A stretch of 64,000 nt of DNA from an uncultured Candidatus Saccharimonadales bacterium (GTDB lineage: Bacteria > Patescibacteriota > Saccharimonadia > UBA4664): NCBI GenBank assembly GCA_964467655.1, contig CAYXSN010000005.1:16920-80919 (forward strand). Direction: 5' to 3'. The position numbers and the translations under genes are program-made. Under the pieces are notes generated by a model, which had not been told where the DNA came from, made no database searches, and was given only the letters and a program-made list of their open reading frames with translations. Shown piece by piece: positions 49,876 through 60,587 of the stretch. Positions within the stretch are counted from its first letter, which is position 1. Each line of letters begins with the position of its first letter.

Positions 49876-50487
49876 CTAGTTGGTTGTTGGTTCGCTCTCG
49901 GGCTTATCTAATGAGCTGAGAAGTTTGATGGTGGTGTATCTTTTTGGGGTTCCTGCCGCAACAAGTAATGTTAACCCGAGCCAAATAATTGCCAGTATCC
50001 ATCCGCCAACCGGGTCGAACCCGACATCAAATTTGGGGTTTCTAACGAATGCAGCAATTAATACAAGCAGTACCAGCGATATAACGACATTTCGCACGGC
50101 TTTAAACAGATAAACTCTTGGCTCTATATATTTTGGCGCCTCATCCCGGTAGACGTAAGCATCAAGCATCGTTTGATCGTAGTTTCTGTTCTTCAGATAT
50201 TCCTTAACAGCGAGATACCTTACTGATTGTTGCTTCATTCGCCCAACTGCCGAAAGAAATTCTGTATGAATATCATTTTGGTATCCGGCCAACCTAACGG
50301 CTACCTCATGAGATACCTCAAAGCGTTTTTCAAAATCTTTAGCCGTTAGCACTACCGCATGCTCAGATGACTTCGAAATTGGTCCGGGGGTTTCGTCACC
50401 TATATAAATCTCAGATGCATCCGAAAAGCCTATGTAAATTTCGCAGTAGACCTCAGCCGTCAAATCGATTGCGGTAAGCTTCTTCAT
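49876..50487 (-). CDS. Hypothetical protein with two C-terminal TM helices
   Basis: Start at internal ATG 50487 preceded by GGAGAG RBS; C-terminal hydrophobic helices. Confidence 0.4.
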   Translation of the reverse strand: MKKLTAIDLTAEVYCEIYIGFSDASEIYIGDETPGPISKSSEHAVVLTAKDFEKRFEVSHEVAVRLAGYQNDIHTEFLSAVGRMKQQSVRYLAVKEYLKNRNYDQTMLDAYVYRDEAPKYIEPRVYLFKAVRNVVISLVLLVLIAAFVRNPKFDVGFDPVGGWILAIIWLGLTLLVAAGTPKRYTTIKLLSSLDKPESEPTTN

Positions 50488-50533: not shown

Positions 50534-50893
50534 CTAGAAGACATCGTAAGGAGAAAGTATTACTCCGCCATCGCTATCGAGAACCTGCCATTTTTCCTTC
50601 TTCCGGAACAAAGTACGCTCAAGTTTAACCTTGCCTTCCAGGATTGATGCCAGACCCTTGAGCATCACCTGTTTGGGTTCGTCCTGATATATACAATTCT
50701 TATACTCGATATGGATAAAATCCCAATCTCCTTTTGGCAAATGAACGACGCTGACTTTTGCATCAAATTTATCATCGTGAATTACGACATCGCCAAAAAC
50801 CCTATCATTTGAGGAATGCTCGTTATATCTGTACTCGACGCCGCGATCCGATAACAACTGTTTTAATTCTTCGGGCATGTTATTTTCTTTCAT
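50534..50893 (-). CDS. Immunity-like small protein, paralog C of Rhs-associated array
   Basis: C-terminal LEGKVKLERTLFRKKEKWQVLDSDGG aligns with paralogs at 50890..51291 and 51909..52289. Confidence 0.45.
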   Translation of the reverse strand: MKENNMPEELKQLLSDRGVEYRYNEHSSNDRVFGDVVIHDDKFDAKVSVVHLPKGDWDFIHIEYKNCIYQDEPKQVMLKGLASILEGKVKLERTLFRKKEKWQVLDSDGGVILSPYDVF

Positions 50894-51291
50894 CGAGGCG
50901 AGAATTGCTCTAGCGCAGCGGCGGGCACTTTTCGACTTTCAGGATTTATGCGCTGCCAAACATCGAGTTCTTTTCCCGACTTATCGGTAAAAATATATTG
51001 TTTTTTCCTTGTGAGCGTCAGCTTCACGACATATTGTTTTTCGAGAAGCGCGCGGATTATCAACTCATAAATTTCATCAGGGTTATCTGGAAATTCATTT
51101 CCCCCAAATCCGATAGAGATAATCGACCAAGCGTCATTCTTTTTAAGCAGGTATATGTAGATTACGCGATGTTCATTTTTATTGTCTCTAATCGTTACCG
51201 TCAAACTCGTACTATCTACGCCTACGGATGGCTGCTCAATAGAGACGTCGTATTTGTCCTTAATTTGATCTAGTAATTGCGTTATGGTCAC
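50890..51291 (-). CDS. Immunity-like small protein, paralog B of Rhs-associated array
   Basis: GTG start at 51291 with GGAGGG RBS; C-terminal LEKQYVVKLTLTRKKQYIFTDKSGKE aligns with paralogs; upstream extension in track ORF rejected. Confidence 0.45.
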   Translation of the reverse strand: MTITQLLDQIKDKYDVSIEQPSVGVDSTSLTVTIRDNKNEHRVIYIYLLKKNDAWSIISIGFGGNEFPDNPDEIYELIIRALLEKQYVVKLTLTRKKQYIFTDKSGKELDVWQRINPESRKVPAAALEQFSPR

Positions 51292-51334
51292 TTTATTTTC
51301 CCTCCTACTAGGAAATCGAACGGTAAGGGCACAC

Positions 51335-51793
51335 TTAATAAAGCCTGTTTGCCCAGGACTGATTGAAGACGGCCTCCGTGGTCTCAGTTCTGCCCACATC
51401 CTCACCGATTTCTATTTCGGTCTGTTTATCCCATTGCTTTGGTAGCGAGCGAGTTTGGTTACCATCCGCCTTAAACACTGCCGCCCTAAGAATGTTGCCA
51501 TCAAGCTCTTCTGTTATCAGCTTCGCTGCTTTAGGATTACCCGTAACATATTCGTAGTACTTTAAGCCGCTATCAACCCTTTTTCTAAGCATTATCAGCT
51601 CAGTGGCAAAAAGAACTACTTCAAGAACTGTCCCCGCCGCATCGGTCGCCTTATATTCGGATTTTGGCTCAATGAAATGTTCCAGACCTCCTTCAAGATC
51701 GGCTAGGTCTTTATATGTTTCGGTTTTGCCGTCATGCCCGATGGTTATCGGGAGTTGGGGTTGGTAGTTTTGAGGGTTAACTATGATATGCAT
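51335..51793 (-). CDS. Small hypothetical protein in immunity gene array (distinct family)
   Basis: ATG with GGAGG RBS 7 nt upstream; 152 aa. Confidence 0.4.
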   Translation of the reverse strand: MHIIVNPQNYQPQLPITIGHDGKTETYKDLADLEGGLEHFIEPKSEYKATDAAGTVLEVVLFATELIMLRKRVDSGLKYYEYVTGNPKAAKLITEELDGNILRAAVFKADGNQTRSLPKQWDKQTEIEIGEDVGRTETTEAVFNQSWANRLY

Positions 51794-51908
51794 TTTAGAA
51801 CCTCCATGGTGACTGTAATCTCATATTCGGCCTACATTTGCATAATGTTCCGACCAATCTTACCCATGTATGGGGTCAACTCAAGTCACGCCCCACCAAG
51901 AAAGAGAC

Positions 51909-52289
51909 CTAATCTCGAGGCCAATATTCTTTTCCAGACTGGCCCGTCACAACATATTTTTTTTGACCAAAGCCAAACAATGTTTTTTTCTCGGCTATTT
52001 TCCCCGATAATATGCCATCGAGTGCTTCAAATAAGCTTTCTGGGCTTTCGTCGGTGTATTCTCCGTTGAGATATTTCACCGCAATCAATTGCGCGCCTAG
52101 GGAATTATTTTTATTCTCGACGAGTTCCACGACTACGACATTGTTCGAGTTACCTGGGCGAATCTCGATCTCCATAAAGCTTAGGTTGGGACTTTCTTTG
52201 CTCGCCGTTAAAGGCCGAGTTACCTCACATTGCCCTGAATATTTTTGAGCGAGTTCTTCAACCCTATTAACTGCATTTAATTTAGCCAT
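51909..52289 (-). CDS. Putative cognate immunity protein of Rhs toxin (paralog A)
   Basis: Starts 2-5 nt after Rhs stop with GGAGGAAGG RBS embedded in Rhs 3' end; C-terminal LSGKIAEKKTLFGFGQKKYVVTGQSGKE motif shared with paralogs B and C. Confidence 0.5.
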   Translation of the reverse strand: MAKLNAVNRVEELAQKYSGQCEVTRPLTASKESPNLSFMEIEIRPGNSNNVVVVELVENKNNSLGAQLIAVKYLNGEYTDESPESLFEALDGILSGKIAEKKTLFGFGQKKYVVTGQSGKEYWPRD

Positions 52290-52291
52290 TT

Positions 52292-55200
52292 CTACCACCT
52301 TCCTCCTACGATGAAGTCCCAGTGACGATCTTTACCGCGCCACTTCCAACCAGCACGGAAAGTCTGGCGGTTACCCGGAAAGCGCGACCACCCTAACTTG
52401 AAACTTCCATAATTATTTAGTTTACCGGCACCACTGCCCAGAGTTGCGTGTCCAAAGAGCTTACTATTTACCCCAATGACCGGCATTCGTGACTGTACAC
52501 GCGCCAACTTAGTACTAACCGCTTCAACTCCCTTAAGAAACATCCCCGCCCTACCGGCATTTACCGCCTTTGCTGCAACCTTGGTCAACAAGCCCGCGCC
52601 CACCAAACCACCAGCAGCAACCAACGCCTCCCCGTACCGTCCCTGAGCGACATTCCCTGCGACAGCAACCGCAGAGCATGCTATGCCGATCGGACCAGGT
52701 ATAAACGAGCCTATTGTAGCAACTGTGGTAACAACTTTTGCCGCAGCCTTAAACTTGTCCCAGAATCCAGCATTCCCATCTAAGTCGAAACCGTTTACTG
52801 GATCAGTCGGGTACACATAGCCGTTCTCGTTTCCACCCTCCTGCGGATCGACCTGGAGGAACCTCCCAATCTTCGCCAGGTACACCCGTGCCCCCATCTC
52901 AGTCGGAGCAAGAGCAAAGGCTGTTTCGGTGTCCTTTTCGTGCTGACCGACCCAGCCATAGGTAGAGCCGGTTGCGGTGTTGTTGGGGGAGCTAGCGACC
53001 GGGTTACCGAAGGGATCGTACATGAAGGTACCCGTTTGCGTACCATTGGCGTCGGTGGTTGCCATAGTGTCGCCATGAACATTGACGAGGGAGAAGACGC
53101 GGTTAGCCGGAGCTGTTTGGTTCGGTCGTACAGTCAGAAGAACTCCACCGGGCAGTTGCTCATACTTCTCGACGATGGCATTGCTTGCATCGAGGAGTAG
53201 ATCGGGAGAGTCGCCAGCGCCCGTAAACCCATACTTGTTGGTAGTCGTAGAGCCATTGACCAGCACCCGCTGGATAGTCCTACCCTGGACATCGCGAGTG
53301 TAGGTAGCAGACTTGCTACCTACAGTAATCGAGCTGTTGCGATCACTTGAATCGTACGCAAACTGAGTGACAGGCGTGGTGCCAATTTGAGTGGTGTTGC
53401 CATGCGCATCGTAGACGGGGCTCGTGACGGAGGCATCGGAGCTACTTACGAGGCGGTCAGCGTAATCGTAACAGTAGGTCGTCGTGACCCCATTTACCGT
53501 TTGGCTGGTTCGGTTGGAGTTTTTGTTGGCATTGGCATTGTAGGTACCCGTGCAACTAGTAGGGGAGCCAAAACCGTAGCTGTAGGTATTTGAGCCAATG
53601 GTCGCAGAGGTTAGGCGGCCTGCTTTGTCGTAAGTGTAGCTCTTGCTTTGACCAAGCTCGGTGCCAGAGATGATTTGGCCGGATTGGCTGCGAGTAACAG
53701 CGTCGGTAACATGCGTCGTACCATTACCGAGCGTGTAATCCATGCCCACCGTCCGGCCGAGAGAGTCGCGGGAGATGGCCAGAGCTTGCGAGCCAGCGGT
53801 AGGGTAGGTGACGCCTGACAGGCGACCGTAGCCATCGTAGCTCGGAACCGCCTGGGTAACCCCGTCGAGGGTTTGGGTGGTTAAACGATTGTAACTATCG
53901 TATGTGAACCCTTCTGCGCCGAGCGGACCGGAACGCGAGCTGAGGCGGCCGAGAGAGTCGTAGCTCGTTGTGGTGGTCTGGTTGTTGGCGTCGGTGTAGC
54001 TGACTGTACGGCCAAGGAGGTCGCTAGTGCTGGTAATGGTGCCATTAGCATCGGCCGTGCTCACAACGAAGGGATTACCACCAACGGACCAGTTGTTAGT
54101 GACGGTGCGGGCCGGAGCGCTACCAAAGGCCGGGATGGCAACTTGTGTGACTCGGCCGCGAGAGTCGTAGGTGGTGCAAGTCCAGGAATCACTATTGTAG
54201 CGAGTAGCCACCACCCGACCAGCTGCGTCGTAAACTGTTTCAGTGGTACGGCTAATTTGAGCGCCAGCTCCATCTGGGTCGGCTTCAGCCTTGAGCTTCA
54301 GCATACCTGCCTGGCTCACGGCCGCTCCGCCCACGCAGGGGTTAGCCCGGGTTTCGGTGGCACCGTAATAGGCGTATTGCGTACTCGGGTTACCTGCATC
54401 GTTGCCCGGCAGCACCTTAGTGAGCTGCCGCAAGTAGCTACCGCTAGTGCCTTGGGCTTCGTAGGTACTTGAGCTAGTGTAGTTGAGACCAGCAGAATCG
54501 AGGGTATTGGACTGTGCGAGGCCGAGCTCGGGATTAGCGCCGTAATTGGTAGTCGATTGCGTATCACCAACCGCAGCGCTTGAGTCAAAGGTCTTTTGGC
54601 TCGTCGCTAGTCCGTAACGGGGCGTCAAGATCGAACCAAGCACGCTCGTCTCACTCCCACCCGGCGCGGTCTTGAACAGTTCCAGATGACCGTCGGCGTC
54701 GAGCGTGGAGCCGACGGCTTTATTGTAATAGTCGAGCCGGACGCGGTGCCAGGAGTTGGCGGTCGGATTCGTGAACACGCCAACGGTATGGTCGCGGTAA
54801 ACACCGTCAGCCCAATCATCAGCCACAAGAATATCGTCAATCCAGAGGCGGGCACCATCGTCGGACTTAACTTTGAAAGTGTGGTCGCCGGTTTCGGCCA
54901 GCTTAATTGAACCGCTCAGCCGCAAGCCCCAACCGTAAGTGGACTGGCTCGGCGTAATGGGCTGCGTCGAGCCCCAATTCTTCACCACATCGCCGTTTGT
55001 GGGGCCAACGCCAGTTTGGTGGCTCCTGGGGGCGCCGGTGAGGACCTTGGTGCTCACGCCGGTGCCATTGGTAGCAATTGCGACGTCGTAGTAGGTGGCG
55101 GCTAGGCCGGTAATGCCCTCGTCATAGCCAGTTTGCGTATGGGGAGTTGAGCTGACATTAGCCGTCAGCGGCTTGCGGTCGGTCCCATACCAACTGCTCG

Positions 55201-58200
55201 GAGCGGGGCCATATTGATCCGTCGGCCGGTCGTCCTCGTCATAGATAGTAGTGGACTTGAGTCCAGCCGCATCCGTCGAAGAAAGCACCATATCCTTGCG
55301 AGGTGCCCCCGTAGTTGGGTCAACATCCCACTCGGTCTTGGTGGTGAGTCCAGATAACCAGCTCGACGGCGTACCAAAGGTTGTTCCGGTTGAAATACCA
55401 GCCATAATCTGGTCACCACCCGCCCCGGCGGTGCCGTTATTGAACGAGCCGAAGTCGGCCTTACCGTCAGCGTTTGCATCACCCGTAAACGGCTTCATGC
55501 CAAACCAGTTCCATCCCGCTAGGCTCTGAACATAGGTGGTGCTGTTAGCCAACGGTGAGCTCGCTCCATACAGGGTATGAAGGTCAGTGCCGCTCGGTGT
55601 ACTGTGGACCAATGCTACGTCATCATAAGCATCGCCATTAAAGTTGCCCGCAGCCAGGTTTACCTTCGACCAAACCCAGCCATTTGCAGCAGGGAGGCTG
55701 CGGATGTAGGTCGAGGTATTAGCGAATGGTGTCGTACCACCATTGAGCATATGAACATCAATGCCGTCACTGGCTACCTGATGGAAGATAGCCACGTCAG
55801 AGTAGCCATCGGCGTTAAACTTCCCGCCCGCCAGTTTCATCTTGGACCAGGCCCAACCGTTTGAAGCCGGTAAGTTTACTACCCAGGTAGAGCTATTGCC
55901 GAAAGGCGTCGAGCCACCGTAGAGGGCGTGTATCCCGACACCATCATCAGAGAGCTGATGGAAGATAGTAAGGTCAGCTTTACCATCACCGTTAATATCA
56001 CCAGGCACCAGCTTGAACTTGGACCAGGCCCAACCGCTAGAAGAGGGCATATTGCGTAGTAAGGTGGGGCTGTTATTGGAGGGTGAGCTGGTTCCATATA
56101 GTGCGTAGACATCGGCCCCGTCTCCGGTGGCCTGTCGAACCAAAGCTAGATCAGCTTTCCCATCGCCGTTAAAGTCACCCACAAGGGGCTTGATGCCATC
56201 CCAGCTCCAGCCCGGCAGGTTAGCCCAACGCACCAGCGGTTGGTAACCGCTACCCGTAGATGCTGCAAACATAACCTCCGAGCCACTCGCACCGCTGGCA
56301 CCGTTGTTGAGCAAGGCAACATCGGCTTTACCGTCGCCGTTAAAGTCACCCGTGATGGGGATCGTGCCGTTCCAGTTGAAGCCGTACTGCTCAGTATCGG
56401 TCAGCGTGCGATACGTTGTATCGTACGTGACTTTACGACCTCCGGTTACGGCAGTATCCGGGTGCATGATGGTGTAGCCAGCATCGCTACCAGCAGCCGA
56501 GTAATAGCTGTAGCTATGAGACTGATGAGCGGCTCCAGCAGTAGCAGCGGGCATGGTTATGCTTGAAACGCGGCCAATGGCGTCATAGGAAATGGTCGTA
56601 AGCTCGTTTCCATCCTGAGTACGAACGCCAGCCGAGATAGCATCATTCGCCAACGAATCCCGCATCGATGTGATGCGGCCGAGCGAATCAAAGCCATAGT
56701 CGCTAATCTCACTCCCGGGGTGGATTAGCCGAGCAAGCCGCCCCGTAGACGAGTAGGCAAACTGCGTAACCTGGCTGTCTGACGTAGTAACCGCACAAAT
56801 CATGCCAGCTGGTACGGCCGAGAAGCCCGAGGGAACCGAAGGACATCCGGCGTCGCCACTGTAGTAAACCTTAGCCCAACGACTTGAATCTACCCCATCG
56901 GTAACCTGGGTGAGATGGGCAGGGAGACCACTGTAACTGTACTGCAAAGCCGCCGGATTGCGATCGTCAGCCGGGCTCGTGCTCAGCTTGAGCGTGCCGT
57001 CAGTGTCGAAGACATAGGTACGGCCATCACTATCCTGGAGAGTGATGGTGCCGTCACCATTGCGGACCATGTGGCCGGTCTCGTTGACCGGAGGCGTGTA
57101 GCCCGAGCCGGTCCATTTATACTCATGCGTTTCACCGGTCGAGTCACGCAGAACCACACTATTTACGCCAATGGTCGCAAAATCATAACCAAGATCGCCA
57201 TCGGCATCAATGCTTAAGCCCCAGCCATCTGGCAGCACTTGAGCCTGCGGCAGCAGCCAGTCCGACGGCACCGGTAGGGTCTTGTCGATACCTGGCCCAT
57301 CAACATAGAGTCCAAGACTGGCATTGCCAGTCACCTCACGGTATTCAACCGTGATCGACTTAGTCTGTCCGGCAGTCATGGTGACGCCAGTTGAACCCGG
57401 CGCAGTCGTTGGCCAAGCGGGTGAGGTGGTGGAAGTAGACCAGTTATCGAGCTGGGTTACGCCATCCACGATAATCTTGATACCATCATCGGCCTGACCG
57501 CCAAACTTATAGGTGCCGTCTTGGGGTGCCTTAAAGTACCCCGACCAACGCACTACAAAGTTGTCTGCTGGCCCGTTTGGTACCGGCGAACCAGCACCCC
57601 AATCCATCCCGAGCGTCGTGTCAGTACGAGCCAAGAAGCGGCTACTGACATCCGACTCGCTCGAAGGGAATGAGCTTCCGGTGTAATAACGCCCGATGAG
57701 ACCGTGCGGCGTAGCCACTGGCCGCACCCCGGTCTGAAGCCATTCAGTTGGCACAACTTGGTCAGAGAAGCCAACGCCGCGAACCCATAAACTGTTATAA
57801 GCTGCTCCAGTCGCCTCGGTGTAATCAACCGTAATGGGCACGGCCTGACCAGCCGTCAGGGCAACTCCCGTTCCCCAATGTTGGTTGGTGTAGCAACCTC
57901 CGCTGGTCGTATCCAGGACTACCTGACTATTGAGGGTAACTTTAACCGTATCATCACCAACACAGCCCATCGTGTAGGTGGTGGTATAGGGAGCCACAAA
58001 GTAGCCGCTCCAGCGAGCGCTAAAGTTATCTGTCGTTACCATGCCGGTGTACGGAGAGCCGGTATTCCAGTTGTAGTCGACGTTGGGCTCGACTCGGGTC
58101 AAAACGGGGTTGCCGGAAAAGGTGGTGTTGTTCCAGTACTGTGCTACCAGACCCTGGCGAGACCGTTGCGGCGAGTTGTAGTCAAGACCGATGCCCAAGC

Positions 58201-60124
58201 TACCGCCAAGTGCCGCGATTGAATGACTCTTGGCTCCAGTCGTTAAATTACCCGTAGCCAGGTCGACACTAACCGGGCCCACCGTATCAAACGCTTGGGT
58301 CGCATCCTTGCCGTTGCGCATATCAACTTTAAACGAGTATGTAGGGCTATAAACCGAAGCAGATTTGAGATAGGTGCCCTGGTAGCTATCCCACACCAAA
58401 GACTGCCAATAATAGGTTGTCCCGTCCTGCAAGACGTTGTCCGGCACGGTCCACTGTGATATCGGGGTAAGCCCCGAATCGGCAACGACACCGCTCACGC
58501 TTTGAATCGTGTTATATGGGTTCGAACCAGGAACGGTTTTGCTCGTTCCAATGATGTACCGATACTGCAATGGCCCGGGTCCATCTGGGTCGGTCGAAGC
58601 CGTAGTTTTTAGAAGTGGCTGGTTGGTCGTGGTTATGCCTTGGTCGGCAGGGGAACCGGCCGCAATCAGGCTTTGTGACGGAAGCGATTCGTAGTCAAAC
58701 CAGACGAGCGTACGGTCGTAGGCCAGTAGTTTGTAGGAGTTCGTGTTAGCCTCTTCGCCGTGGACAATCATCCAAGCGCTGTAATCGCCAGCCGCGGCCG
58801 CTCTCCGGTACATATCCGACACATCAATGTCGCCTGTCGAGCCAACCGTCCCACTCTGCTCACCATAAGCATAGTCGATACAGCCATACCCGAAGCATCC
58901 CGCGTGGTCGAGGTAAACTGAGCGGTTATCGTAGGTGCCGTAGTAATGAACCCCGTCGGGAGTGGGCATCTCGACGTGGAAGATGGCTTGGACGATATAT
59001 TTGCCCGCCACCGACGAATATGGGGAATAGAACATGAACCGCCAGATATTGCCACTAACGTTACCCACACTGTTGCCACAGCCCTGGCCCGGGTTGCAGA
59101 CATAGCCGTCCGACTTGTAGTTAACGTAGTTGCTCCCGCTATAGCTCCAAAACGACGGATCAATCACCAGAGGGAATTTATCGGTGGTCTGCTTTTGCAT
59201 CCAGTCCGAATCAAGCGTAACGGTGAGGCGTGAACCATTTACCGATTGCCGGACAATTGGTGCGGCCCCCAAGATGCCCTCAGTAGCAGTGGCGATAGTC
59301 GGAACCGGAAGCTTAATGTTGCTCAAAGCCCCGTCGAGCTTAAAACCGCCCGGATTGTCGGTATCAGGCAAGAGGTTTGCGCCCGAGAAATCAAACGAAA
59401 AAGTGCTAGCGGCGGCCCGGCTCTTTATGACGATGCTCTCTTTAACCTCTGAACCCGACAACTGGTACATCAGATCAATGCCCGGCCAGACATTACGGTA
59501 CTTCACGATCTGGTTAGGGGCGGTACCGGTGACTTCTGGCTGGACTTGGCTTGCGCCGAGGGGTTTGAAAGTGACTGTCTGTCCGCCTTGATTTAGCTCA
59601 ACTCCTTGTGTAGGCGAAACTGCGCCAAAGCGAGCCTGCCAGGAGTTAGCTTTGGTCTTCCATTTACCATCCGTGGCGTCTTGAGCCAGAGACACATCGA
59701 CGTCTTTCCATTGGCCATTTTCTCGATAGCTCGTAGCTACTAGGCTACGGCGAAGGCTTTTGCTGCCGTCGGCGTTGAGGAAAACGGTGTCATTTTCAGT
59801 CCGACCTTCATTGAGAGCTTGCACGTGCCGTCTATCGCTTGGATGACCATCTTGCTGTGCTTTGCGGTCAGCATCCAGCTGCTGTTGGACAGAGATTGGG
59901 AGTGCGGAGGCTTTGCCAGTAGGGAGGGTGGCGTCGGCGGCCGGGGCGCTTGCGGGGGTGGTCTCAGCTAAAGCATGCGGTGTCCGAGCCTGATGCTTAT
60001 TGTAGGCGTCGATGAGCAATCCCACGCCAACTGAACTCAAAGTAATTGCGCCAACCATAAATATATTGAACGCAGAATAATGGAGCTTACGATCAATTAC
60101 TTTTTTGACACGCTGATACCACAT
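52292..60124 (-). CDS. Giant Rhs/YD-repeat polymorphic toxin (2610 aa): N-terminal TM anchor, PA14 domains, FG-GAP/VCBS repeats, YD repeats, RHS core, variable C-terminal Gly/Ala-rich toxin domain
   Basis: Two PA14-like segments (ARWSGYF... / VRWSGYFKAP...), six GDFNGDGKAD-type FG-GAP repeats, many YD repeats (YxYDxxGR), RHS core ending YVYPTDPVNGFDLDGN, then ~150-aa divergent tail. Confidence 0.85.
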   Translation of the reverse strand: MWYQRVKKVIDRKLHYSAFNIFMVGAITLSSVGVGLLIDAYNKHQARTPHALAETTPASAPAADATLPTGKASALPISVQQQLDADRKAQQDGHPSDRRHVQALNEGRTENDTVFLNADGSKSLRRSLVATSYRENGQWKDVDVSLAQDATDGKWKTKANSWQARFGAVSPTQGVELNQGGQTVTFKPLGASQVQPEVTGTAPNQIVKYRNVWPGIDLMYQLSGSEVKESIVIKSRAAASTFSFDFSGANLLPDTDNPGGFKLDGALSNIKLPVPTIATATEGILGAAPIVRQSVNGSRLTVTLDSDWMQKQTTDKFPLVIDPSFWSYSGSNYVNYKSDGYVCNPGQGCGNSVGNVSGNIWRFMFYSPYSSVAGKYIVQAIFHVEMPTPDGVHYYGTYDNRSVYLDHAGCFGYGCIDYAYGEQSGTVGSTGDIDVSDMYRRAAAAGDYSAWMIVHGEEANTNSYKLLAYDRTLVWFDYESLPSQSLIAAGSPADQGITTTNQPLLKTTASTDPDGPGPLQYRYIIGTSKTVPGSNPYNTIQSVSGVVADSGLTPISQWTVPDNVLQDGTTYYWQSLVWDSYQGTYLKSASVYSPTYSFKVDMRNGKDATQAFDTVGPVSVDLATGNLTTGAKSHSIAALGGSLGIGLDYNSPQRSRQGLVAQYWNNTTFSGNPVLTRVEPNVDYNWNTGSPYTGMVTTDNFSARWSGYFVAPYTTTYTMGCVGDDTVKVTLNSQVVLDTTSGGCYTNQHWGTGVALTAGQAVPITVDYTEATGAAYNSLWVRGVGFSDQVVPTEWLQTGVRPVATPHGLIGRYYTGSSFPSSESDVSSRFLARTDTTLGMDWGAGSPVPNGPADNFVVRWSGYFKAPQDGTYKFGGQADDGIKIIVDGVTQLDNWSTSTTSPAWPTTAPGSTGVTMTAGQTKSITVEYREVTGNASLGLYVDGPGIDKTLPVPSDWLLPQAQVLPDGWGLSIDADGDLGYDFATIGVNSVVLRDSTGETHEYKWTGSGYTPPVNETGHMVRNGDGTITLQDSDGRTYVFDTDGTLKLSTSPADDRNPAALQYSYSGLPAHLTQVTDGVDSSRWAKVYYSGDAGCPSVPSGFSAVPAGMICAVTTSDSQVTQFAYSSTGRLARLIHPGSEISDYGFDSLGRITSMRDSLANDAISAGVRTQDGNELTTISYDAIGRVSSITMPAATAGAAHQSHSYSYYSAAGSDAGYTIMHPDTAVTGGRKVTYDTTYRTLTDTEQYGFNWNGTIPITGDFNGDGKADVALLNNGASGASGSEVMFAASTGSGYQPLVRWANLPGWSWDGIKPLVGDFNGDGKADLALVRQATGDGADVYALYGTSSPSNNSPTLLRNMPSSSGWAWSKFKLVPGDINGDGKADLTIFHQLSDDGVGIHALYGGSTPFGNSSTWVVNLPASNGWAWSKMKLAGGKFNADGYSDVAIFHQVASDGIDVHMLNGGTTPFANTSTYIRSLPAANGWVWSKVNLAAGNFNGDAYDDVALVHSTPSGTDLHTLYGASSPLANSTTYVQSLAGWNWFGMKPFTGDANADGKADFGSFNNGTAGAGGDQIMAGISTGTTFGTPSSWLSGLTTKTEWDVDPTTGAPRKDMVLSSTDAAGLKSTTIYDEDDRPTDQYGPAPSSWYGTDRKPLTANVSSTPHTQTGYDEGITGLAATYYDVAIATNGTGVSTKVLTGAPRSHQTGVGPTNGDVVKNWGSTQPITPSQSTYGWGLRLSGSIKLAETGDHTFKVKSDDGARLWIDDILVADDWADGVYRDHTVGVFTNPTANSWHRVRLDYYNKAVGSTLDADGHLELFKTAPGGSETSVLGSILTPRYGLATSQKTFDSSAAVGDTQSTTNYGANPELGLAQSNTLDSAGLNYTSSSTYEAQGTSGSYLRQLTKVLPGNDAGNPSTQYAYYGATETRANPCVGGAAVSQAGMLKLKAEADPDGAGAQISRTTETVYDAAGRVVATRYNSDSWTCTTYDSRGRVTQVAIPAFGSAPARTVTNNWSVGGNPFVVSTADANGTITSTSDLLGRTVSYTDANNQTTTTSYDSLGRLSSRSGPLGAEGFTYDSYNRLTTQTLDGVTQAVPSYDGYGRLSGVTYPTAGSQALAISRDSLGRTVGMDYTLGNGTTHVTDAVTRSQSGQIISGTELGQSKSYTYDKAGRLTSATIGSNTYSYGFGSPTSCTGTYNANANKNSNRTSQTVNGVTTTYCYDYADRLVSSSDASVTSPVYDAHGNTTQIGTTPVTQFAYDSSDRNSSITVGSKSATYTRDVQGRTIQRVLVNGSTTTNKYGFTGAGDSPDLLLDASNAIVEKYEQLPGGVLLTVRPNQTAPANRVFSLVNVHGDTMATTDANGTQTGTFMYDPFGNPVASSPNNTATGSTYGWVGQHEKDTETAFALAPTEMGARVYLAKIGRFLQVDPQEGGNENGYVYPTDPVNGFDLDGNAGFWDKFKAAAKVVTTVATIGSFIPGPIGIACSAVAVAGNVAQGRYGEALVAAGGLVGAGLLTKVAAKAVNAGRAGMFLKGVEAVSTKLARVQSRMPVIGVNSKLFGHATLGSGAGKLNNYGSFKLGWSRFPGNRQTFRAGWKWRGKDRHWDFIVGGRW

Positions 60125-60239: not shown

Positions 60240-60587
60240 CTAGTTCTTAAGATACCGACCATAAGTATCCATAAGGTCCTCACGATTGCGCGGATTATTG
60301 AGCTGACCCAGTATCATAAGACCGCTGAACCCATAGCCAACCATAAAGGCAATGAGGTAAGCCGGGAACCAGGCCCGTAGACCAGCATAAACAGCAGCCG
60401 ATATTGCCAGCCAGACTAACGGGCTAGCCAATGTTACAACCCACGGAATTTTGTCTACTCGGCCAGCCCTCTTCCAGCGATACAACTGAGGTAGCGCCAA
60501 AAACAGGGGATAGATAATTTGAGCCGTCGCTAGCGCCCCAACGCCACAACCAATCATTAAAGCAATACAACCAAGAATAAGTACCAT
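60240..60587 (-). CDS. Small hypothetical membrane protein (3-4 TM)
   Basis: Hydrophobic helices, 115 aa. Confidence 0.4.
   Translation of the reverse strand: MVLILGCIALMIGCGVGALATAQIIYPLFLALPQLYRWKRAGRVDKIPWVVTLASPLVWLAISAAVYAGLRAWFPAYLIAFMVGYGFSGLMILGQLNNPRNREDLMDTYGRYLKN

Follow-up and report, generated by a model that had tools for sequence, protein, structure and literature searches.

The window, a 64,000-nucleotide stretch of contig CAYXSN010000005.1 from an uncultured Candidatus Saccharimonadales bacterium, carries on its minus strand a gene that very probably encodes an Rhs polymorphic toxin; this gene, its C-terminal tail and the small genes behind it are the subject of the analysis. 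The gene is a single open reading frame (ORF) of 2610 amino acids (aa) that begins with ATG and stays intact over 7.8 kb, and it is the largest gene in the window when the ORFs are ranked (the runners-up encode 787 and 746 aa), both as the first-pass annotation of the sequence had stated. The identical protein was found on at least six metagenome contigs, the longest of which (82.8 kb) has the same neighbours. The gene and the parts of its product are as follows.

52292..60124, minus strand: predicted Rhs polymorphic toxin gene, 2610 aa plus stop, ATG start (ORF translation and Pfam/NCBIfam architecture)
60005..60073, minus strand: hydrophobic signal-anchor, aa 18-40 (KD19 hydropathy 1.75-1.95, with a basic stretch before it)
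59300..59656, minus strand: DUF7948 region, aa 157-275 (PF25778, E = 4e-7, 30.7 bits)
57794..58162, minus strand: PA14 domain 1, aa ~655-777 (PF07691, E = 1e-21)
57269..57706, minus strand: PA14 domain 2, aa 807-952 (PF07691, E = 2e-23)
55385..56368, minus strand: six FG-GAP repeats, aa ~1253-1580 (PF13517 and PF01839), inserted in the YD-repeat region
54701..55009, minus strand: PA14 domain 3, aa ~1706-1808 (PF07691, E = 6e-14)
53021..54637, minus strand: main YD/RHS-repeat shell, aa ~1830-2368 (PF05593, TIGR01643)
52775..53020, minus strand: Rhs-associated core, aa 2369-2450 (TIGR03696, 41 bits against a cut-off of 32.5), ending in DPVNGFDLDG
52559..52774, minus strand: gamma-peptide-like pre-toxin leader, aa 2451-2522 (predicted amphipathic helix, SFIPGPIG, then Gly/Ala-rich hydrophobic helices)
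52295..52513, minus strand: putative toxin domain named Ctox, 73 aa, aa 2538-2610 (motifs GxNSKLFG, LN, GWS and FRxG; assigned by a hidden Markov model, HMM)

Most of this architecture had already been read from the translation in the first-pass annotation, and the family searches agree with it: the N-terminal transmembrane (TM) anchor is a hydrophobic segment at aa 18-40 that follows a basic N-terminus (KD19 up to 1.95), six FG-GAP/VCBS units of the type 'GDxNxDGxxD' ('GDFNGDGKAD'-type) can be read in the translation, and the long YD-repeat shell and the RHS core are matched by PF05593, TIGR01643 and TIGR03696. PA14-like domains are present as well, although Pfam finds three of them where two had been counted. 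The RHS/YD repeats lie on both sides of the FG-GAP insert, with further YD repeats earlier in the protein at aa ~960-1240; they are recognised by PF05593 in five stretches (E = 1e-21) and by TIGR01643 at 50 bits (cut-off 15.8), and a TEN_YD-shell Pfam match is precomputed for the identical protein. The FG-GAP repeats form a probable beta-propeller. This insert does not occur in all homologues and is found in P0016, P0025, P0032 and P0035. The Pfam scan gave no PAAR, LXG or TPS domain in the toxin protein, which together with the N-terminal hydrophobic segment makes Sec export with a signal-anchor the simplest reading.

The boundary motif DPVNGFDLDG occupies aa 2441-2450 and leaves a tail of 160 aa (aa 2451-2610). 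A full-length protein search returned 52 relatives besides the protein itself, among them entries named 'PA14 domain-containing protein' of Kribbella caucasensis and Streptomyces sp. NPDC047072 and entries of Candidatus Saccharimonadales and Saccharimonadia metagenome-assembled genomes. The DPxG-like motif aligns across these homologues. The shell end, taken as the 400 aa before the boundary, was aligned apart from the tail. It is 79% identical to the window protein in P0011 (Kribbella), 78% in P0012 (Streptomyces), 79% in P0017, 74% in P0024, 72% in P0013 and 70% in P0030, while the tails of P0011, P0013, P0017, P0024 and P0030 are unrelated to the window tail. Among the homologues compared, the window tail type is shared only by P0012, P0038 and P0045, at 48-55% identity; some other homologues have a GIY-YIG, HNH, PT-HINT or phospholipase A2 domain in the tail. 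A comparison of related loci had been proposed at the outset, and its result is that the tail varies while the shell is conserved, the classic signature of an Rhs toxin cassette. Architecture, boundary and variable tail all agree with the encapsulated Rhs-type polymorphic toxin, ending its core at a DPxG-type boundary, that the first-pass annotation had described, and we have high confidence that the locus encodes such a toxin together with its immunity.

The tail resolves into two separable modules, a leader (aa 2451 to about 2522) and a C-terminal basic domain (aa 2538-2610). A tail-only search returned nine proteins and an exhaustive profile search returned 216 cluster representatives among 1.84 billion (E <= 1e-3); the modules were assigned with separate HMMs for the leader and Ctox on the fetched proteins (n = 211). 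The leader has the form 'W..(amphipathic helix)..VASFIPGPIGxxASGVAVAGNxAQGxYxxAAxAAxGxIPGGK' and stands straight after the DLDG boundary. Of the 158 proteins with a leader match, 35 have Ctox behind the leader, 10 have a HINT domain there, and in 74 more than 60 aa of other sequence come next. Pfam searches of 68 proteins with the leader and HINT or other sequence gave PT-HINT in 12, Tox-REase-9 in three, GIY-YIG in two and Tox-REase-7 in one. As the leader precedes so many unrelated toxin types, the Gly/Ala-rich stretch is best read as a generic pre-toxin leader, one for which neither Pfam nor NCBIfam has a model.

These results change the first view of the tail, which had been described as a Gly/Ala-rich stretch of ~150 aa forming one glycine-zipper membrane toxin. 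The tail itself and its composition stand (17 Ala and 11 Gly in its first 72 residues, with hydrophobic Gly/Ala-rich helices at aa 2471-2516 by hydropathy). The single toxin domain does not: the Gly/Ala part is the separate leader, and the last 73 aa are a distinct basic, beta-rich domain. The glycine-zipper toxin was rejected as a candidate, since a repeated GxxxG is absent (there is one only, G55-x3-G59, by eye) and no Gly-zipper Pfam family matches the tail at E <= 10.

A hydrophobic leader is general in the Rhs family: KD19 reaches 1.5 or more within the first 70 residues of 36 of 50 tails, and in the remainder of 5 of 49. A second leader type, '(Q)FSLGG.I.SVAKAVVKAV...VPAP(V/I)IQ', was seen in the tails of P0014, P0016, P0021, P0022, P0025, P0031, P0032, P0037, P0039, P0041 and P0042. 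Its layout is that of the gamma-like one, with an amphipathic helix, a Pro-x-Pro turn and a hydrophobic segment.

The sole Pfam match of any kind on the window tail at E <= 10 is a weak one to Peptidase_A6, the nodavirus coat protein, at profile positions 312-344 (E = 0.007). The same family matches 14 of the 68 leader-bearing bacterial proteins (best E = 2e-5), within positions 311-345 of 353; the scores of 15.9-24 bits lie under the family cut-off of 27, a threshold meant for the entire capsid. When all PDB sequences were searched with a profile built from eight tails, the top matches were gamma chains from Pariacoto virus, Flock House virus (FHV) and black beetle virus (BBV), with Nodamura virus weaker (E = 0.005-0.008 at best and 0.005-0.28 overall), and the matches of this profile at E <= 10 comprised nodavirus capsid or gamma chains and two unrelated weak ones, with no Rhs protein among them. 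With a 78-sequence leader profile the E-values were 1.3e-6 for FHV, 2.5e-6 for Pariacoto virus, 3.9e-6 for BBV and 3.9e-5 for Nodamura virus, and the next, unrelated, match had an E-value of 2.1. The alignment spans gamma residues 3-41 of 44 and is in register with the cleavage site. Moreover, both the leader and the gamma peptide have a conserved Trp 3-4 residues past the cut (predicted in the Rhs protein), and the hydrophobic moment of the first leader helix, 0.39, equals that of FHV gamma1 (0.39). At the level of sequence, the putative leader is significantly similar, in register, to the lytic gamma peptides of nodaviruses.

In Tc and Rhs proteins, the autoproteolysis motif points into the cocoon. 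Likewise, the FHV gamma peptide is cut off at N363/A364 on the inside of the capsid in an Asp75-dependent reaction; the amphipathic helix at the N-terminus of the peptide disrupts membranes, and the hydrophobic part at its C-terminus boosts lysis (PMC8046363). The sequence upstream of the bacterial leader is an Rhs core, and Pfam finds no capsid jelly-roll domain in the Rhs protein, where only the C-terminal positions of Peptidase_A6 match; for this reason the leader is to be classed, on its sequence context, as a look-alike module and not as a member of the capsid family.

The likeness could also be due to convergence or chance, the leader being an ordinary TM pre-toxin segment that packs, holds or anchors the tail and breaches no membrane. 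The stretch concerned is short and has low complexity, hydrophobic leaders of another kind ('QFSLGG..KAVVKAV..PAP') occur in other family members, and hydrophobic cargo segments are known to be shielded in Rhs shells (Tse5, PMC10684867). The hexapeptide IPGPIG also dominates the score: shuffles of the FHV segment that keep it fixed average 13.9 +/- 3.8 of the real 30.9 bits. However, only 3 of 20000 such shuffles reach the real score, the flanks adding ~17 bits, so the match extends past the hexapeptide; among full shuffles none of 20000 does so (maximum 14.6 bits). Furthermore, deepening the profile from 8 to 78 sequences improved the E-value ~4000-fold, the four solved gamma peptides are all matched and no false match lies below E = 2, register and hydrophobic moment are the same, and the Pfam nodavirus model independently matches the 14 bacterial proteins and a viral contig protein. 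We therefore regard convergence or chance, with no membrane breach, as unlikely.

This viral protein is encoded by a non-Rhs ORF at L022:1162-2082, plus strand, on viral contig IMGVR_UViG_3300042691_041112 (29.4 kb). It contains the motif FFDDFAKGFMSVISPVAKVASFIPGPIGAVAKGISALSGG, which matches Peptidase_A6 positions 315-348 (E = 1.5e-4), and the neighbouring ORF encodes a phage-type PDDEXK endonuclease. Judging from this motif, gamma-like peptides may extend past nodaviruses and exist in other viruses too. The literature search returned no paper linking Rhs or polymorphic toxins to nodavirus gamma peptides, and nodaviruses are not mentioned in the accessible part of the text of the 2012 polymorphic-toxin survey (PMC3482391). 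A bolder proposal is that the leader is a true relative of nodavirus gamma. It would then be a membrane-breaching device common to Rhs cocoons and the capsids of non-enveloped RNA viruses, acquired by horizontal exchange or common descent, and a general entry route of Sec-exported Rhs toxins that lack an injection machine. The related motif on the viral contig hints at a wider distribution of such a device; all in all, we consider the proposal possible and rather improbable.

The second module, Ctox, is matched by its HMM in 59 of the 211 fetched proteins. It has 14 Lys/Arg and 2 Asp/Glu among its 73 residues (net charge +12), with the residues G, S, F, G, G, N, G, W and R nearly invariant. 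Elsewhere it follows the leader and HINT (P0128), stands behind unrelated hydrophobic leaders (P0195 and P0206) or occurs in another context (P0211), and it is also part of orphan cassettes whose start lies inside the Rhs core (P0001, P0002 and P0009). In all these contexts Ctox holds the position of a toxin cargo. Structure prediction had been suggested for the tail as a whole; with Ctox alone it succeeded, the AlphaFold2 (AF2) model from a 43-sequence alignment being confident (pLDDT 86, pTM 0.67) and consisting of a short helix, a long ordered loop bearing GxNSKLFG and LN, and an antiparallel sheet of three strands. The 43 Ctox members gave no Pfam, NCBIfam, PDB-sequence or fold match. In the same way, the family scan of the tail found no nuclease or deaminase, as had been noted from the sequence alone, nor any other toxin family. 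The charge suggests that the target is probably a polyanion, for example nucleic acid or the ribosome.

Another recurrent small basic C-terminal family, 'NGNNxLRIGR....FR.S.GP.......H.H.E', was seen in the tails of P0011, P0028, P0140 and P0201 and at loci L013 and L020. Given the shared pattern 'RIG[WR]...FR.x.G', it could be a distant relative of Ctox.

Directly downstream of the toxin gene the following genes were found.

51909..52289, minus strand: candidate immunity gene imm1, 126 aa, soluble, without a TM segment; starts 3 nt after the toxin stop
51335..51793, minus strand: 152-aa ORF between the immunity paralogues; no family match and no relative in the fetched loci
50890..51291, minus strand: imm3, 133 aa (BLASTP against imm1, E = 7e-4 to 3e-5; against imm4, E = 1e-4)
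50534..50893, minus strand: imm4, 119 aa (BLASTP against imm1, E = 2e-7; against L023_1606, E = 1.5e-7)
49876..50487, minus strand: 203-aa protein with two C-terminal TM helices (KD19 2.57), the end of the array in the window

The closest relative of the window Ctox, P0003, lies on an independent 2.3-kb contig (L023), where its stop and the start of a 121-aa ORF overlap. The product of this ORF has 31% identity to imm1 over 118 aa (E = 4e-17), and another paralogue comes after it. This co-variation of toxin and imm1 is the best available evidence for the role of imm1, which is likely, from the gene pairing, to be the cognate immunity protein of the window toxin. A small ORF directly after Ctox is also present at the Streptomyces loci L005 and L008, at the Saccharibacteria loci L009, L006/L010 and L011, on metagenome contig L007 and at Amycolatopsis L015. 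All seven immediate-downstream proteins at Ctox loci that were compared lack TM segments and are neutral to acidic. Immunity proteins of known pore formers are membrane proteins, and the soluble downstream proteins fit a cytoplasmic site of action. Scans of the neighbouring genes against Pfam, NCBIfam and PDB sequences gave no immunity family. A single immunity family for all Ctox loci was considered and rejected: the downstream proteins at other Ctox loci form at least one other family (L005 against L009, E = 6e-22), and hhalign gave a probability of 0.2% between the window trio and the Streptomyces/Saccharibacteria group, each group being internally related.

The three soluble immunity-type paralogues (126, 133 and 119 aa) at 50534..52289 on the minus strand make up an immunity array without matching spare toxins in the window. 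The 203-aa protein with two TM helices has a homologue of 211 aa (E = 1e-16) on L024 and L025, encoded two positions downstream of the P0008 toxin. The window protein may be unrelated cargo, or it may add a second layer of protection, against the leader and at the level of the membrane.

The main rival for the tail as a whole is that all its 160 aa form a membrane-permeabilising pore former comparable to Tse5-CT, in which the leader and the Gly/Ala-rich helices make the lesion and the basic domain docks on anionic lipids. The likeness of the leader to a peptide of proven membrane-lytic activity, the hydrophobic helices at aa 2471-2516, the +12 charge, which suits binding to anionic membranes, and a Ctox without a recognisable enzyme motif would all be in keeping with this, the 2-TM protein conserved in two loci could be the membrane immunity protein, and Tse5 is a precedent for pore-forming Rhs cargo (PMC10684867). 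Yet the leader also precedes nucleases and HINT-processed toxins, which marks it as generic and not as the killing part, and Ctox for its part also occurs behind unrelated leaders (P0195, P0206) and after HINT (P0128). The product of the toxin-coupled gene is soluble at every locus examined, no Gly-zipper family matches the tail, and the matches of the tail profile in PDB at E <= 10 are nodavirus chains and the two weak unrelated ones, with no Rhs protein. On these grounds we judge a pore-forming tail to be distinctly unlikely.

The toxin gene lies in a setting that bears on its origin. The enolase encoded in the window is 99% identical to a metagenome protein, and its closest matches with taxon names, at 70-79% identity, are all proteins named Candidatus Saccharimonadia, Saccharimonadales or Saccharibacteria, in line with the episymbiont-type organism assumed at first; no rRNA or tRNA gene was found in the window. 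The GC content is 54-57% inside the toxin gene and 43-50% in the flanks, with a minimum of 43% just downstream, and the neighbours include a Toprim primase-like gene, a helix-turn-helix gene and ParE. This GC contrast and these gene types fit the accessory region in which the first-pass annotation had placed the gene. A gene for a 115-aa protein with several TM segments (60240..60587, minus strand, hence the same strand) lies 116 nt upstream of the toxin gene. It was considered as a conserved partner and set aside, since no counterpart was found at the other homologous loci examined.

The toxin family is common to Saccharibacteria and Actinomycetota (Streptomyces, Kribbella, Amycolatopsis, Demequina, Antribacter and Tessaracoccus), and the cross-phylum shell identity of up to 79% speaks for genes having been exchanged between epibionts and their hosts' phylum. 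The last 400 shell residues (aa ~2050-2450; 52775..53975, minus strand) are 78-79% identical to the Kribbella/Streptomyces proteins P0011, P0012 and P0017 and only 51-56% identical to P0026 and P0033, which are named Saccharimonadales/Saccharimonadia. This identity pattern, together with the toxin-gene GC content above that of the flanks, suggests that the cassette-proximal part was recently exchanged or recombined between Actinomycetota and Saccharibacteria.

Orphan toxin cassettes were observed in related loci (L009:5035-5481, L010:4944-5525, L003:5093-5704 and L024:346-645). Some start within the Rhs core ('MGARVY..GRF..DP'), others are fragments of Ctox alone. Each is followed by a small ORF of its own, and those of L003 adjoin Y1 transposases; such cassettes are typical raw material for toxin replacement. 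The window holds no orphan cassette, as no second Rhs core, leader or Ctox motif was found in any of its frames.

A role mainly as an adhesin, with PA14 and FG-GAP domains binding the envelope of an actinobacterial host and the tail a passenger of a gene transferred from Actinobacteria, would fit the three PA14 domains and the propeller, the 78-79% shell identity to Kribbella and Streptomyces proteins with gene GC above the flanks, and the need of Saccharibacteria for adhesins in epibiotic growth (PMC10633639), but it is very improbable in view of an ORF intact over 7.8 kb with an identical protein on six contigs, an intact core motif, a tightly coupled immunity-type gene with retained paralogues and a pairing that recurs on an independent contig, and a diversification of tails among homologues that is the signature of selection on toxin function.

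Taken together, we consider it reasonably probable that the locus encodes a Sec-exported, membrane-anchored surface Rhs toxin of a Saccharimonadia epibiont, whose leader breaches the target membrane and whose basic domain acts in the cytoplasm, with the cognate immunity gene downstream. The parts of this reading differ in strength: that the leader is membrane-active and serves delivery seems to us an even call, and a cytoplasmic action of the C-terminal domain is put forward more tentatively still. After Sec export, the protein would be anchored by its N-terminus in the membrane on the producer surface, and the PA14 domains and the FG-GAP propeller would hold a sugar-rich target surface. The YD shell would enclose the tail, and the Rhs aspartyl autoprotease would cut at DPVNGFDLDG(N). 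The released leader (amphipathic helix, IPGPIG and hydrophobic Gly/Ala helices) would then insert into or perturb the target cytoplasmic membrane, as nodavirus gamma does, and carry the attached 73-aa, +12-charged, beta-rich Ctox across it. Ctox would act in the target cytoplasm, and the soluble, slightly acidic 126-aa imm1 would neutralise it in the producer and its kin. The two imm1 paralogues may protect against variant toxins, and protection of the producer's own membrane may fall to the conserved 2-TM protein. The target could be rival epibionts or the actinobacterial host.

Several points weigh against this reading of a leader-borne, cytoplasm-acting toxin. The gamma likeness covers no more than ~39 residues, in a hydrophobic peptide and with a single hexapeptide as its anchor, so that convergence is possible, and the AF2 model of the whole tail (8 sequences) was poor (pLDDT 54) and hence not used. 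The mode of action of Ctox is a guess, because there is no fold match and no acidic or His catalytic set is conserved across all its members. The immunity candidates beside other Ctox toxins (Streptomyces and three Saccharibacteria loci) have no detectable similarity to the window family, and a metagenome scan with the immunity alignment gave no match. The conserved 2-TM protein would equally fit a membrane-acting toxin. Finally, we infer the cleavage, encapsulation, membrane activity and toxicity of the Rhs protein alike.

The leader bears on the question of how the cargo crosses the target cytoplasmic membrane in secreted and surface Rhs toxins of the WapA-like kind, which have neither a type VI secretion system (T6SS) needle nor a TcA channel. 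A leader that resembles an established membrane-lytic viral peptide, and is placed exactly at the new N-terminus created by the predicted autoproteolysis, makes this question experimentally simple. If the leader is indeed related to gamma, it would give a general answer to the entry of Sec-exported Rhs toxins in monoderms and Saccharibacteria, and a bacterial reservoir of gamma-like peptides would be unexpected for virology. The locus also defines an unannotated small basic toxin domain with a matching candidate immunity family. Moreover, Saccharibacteria, which are obligate epibionts of Actinobacteria, share this weapon family, tail type included, with Streptomyces, Kribbella, Amycolatopsis and Demequina, a fact that matters for gene flow, and for conflict, between epibionts and host phylum.

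Two known types of system were rejected as the identity of the locus. A Tc toxin does not fit, as the protein has no SpvB or TcdB mid-N domain and no such domain, other Tc-toxin-type Pfam match or TcA-type translocator partner was found among the neighbours. With no TcA channel partner, the crossing of the membrane would fall to the cargo itself, that is, to its gamma-like leader. A T6SS Rhs effector does not fit either: the N-terminus is a signal-anchor and not PAAR or prePAAR, there is no VgrG linkage, PAAR, VgrG and DUF4150 have no match at E <= 0.1 in the toxin protein, and the neighbouring genes have no match to T6SS families.

Both types nevertheless share features with the window protein. 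As in TcB-TcC cocoons and teneurin YD shells, a YD shell with a beta-propeller insert is predicted to surround an autoproteolytically released C-terminal domain. As in the T6SS effector Tse5 of Pseudomonas aeruginosa (PMC10684867), the Rhs cocoon is predicted to shield a hydrophobic, membrane-inserting C-terminal fragment; T6SS Rhs effectors are, however, associated with PAAR, prePAAR or VgrG, which the window protein lacks, and its immunity candidate is soluble. For prePAAR/Eag effectors, a TM segment has been proposed to help in crossing the target membrane (PMC7773334), but the TM regions of these effectors are N-terminal and chaperoned, whereas the hydrophobic module of the window protein stands after the C-terminal cleavage site. 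The pre-toxin domains PT-HINT, PT-VENN and PT-TG (PMC3482391) are likewise conserved modules between a delivery scaffold and interchangeable toxins. The leader of the window type often co-occurs with PT-HINT (12 of 68 proteins), yet has itself no Pfam or NCBIfam model.

The WapA toxins characterised so far are tRNases. The WapA-type Sec-dependent Rhs toxins (WapA/WapI of Bacillus subtilis; WapA of Streptococcus suis, PMC12704120) resemble the window protein in the N-terminal Sec signal or anchor without a T6SS or type VII secretion domain, in the surface-binding domains, YD-repeat shell, Rhs core boundary, polymorphic C-terminal toxin and downstream immunity gene (a candidate here), and in the monoderm producer. 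WapA differs in having cell-wall-binding repeats, where the window protein has three PA14 domains, an FG-GAP propeller and DUF7948; in addition, the window tail opens with a gamma-peptide-like leader, its toxin domain belongs to no family and the producer is a Saccharimonadia epibiont. The literature search returned no paper describing Rhs toxins of Saccharibacteria, and relative to the libraries and papers searched, a putative pre-toxin leader significantly similar to a viral lytic peptide and the predicted Ctox/imm1 pair are new.

The gamma peptides of FHV, BBV, Pariacoto virus and Nodamura virus (PDB 4ftb/3lob, 2bbv, 1f8v and 1nov) share with the leader the pattern W-x(14-16)-S-x-IPGP[IV]G-x-x-A-S-G, the N-terminal amphipathic helix of equal moment followed by a hydrophobic part, and the position straight C-terminal to an Asp-dependent autocleavage site inside a closed protein shell, which on the Rhs side is predicted. 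Nodavirus gamma differs in being a free peptide of 40-44 aa, present in 180 copies per capsid, that aids the escape of the RNA genome from the endosome, whereas the window leader has ~70 aa, occurs as a single copy in a YD-repeat cocoon and is covalently joined to a toxin domain.

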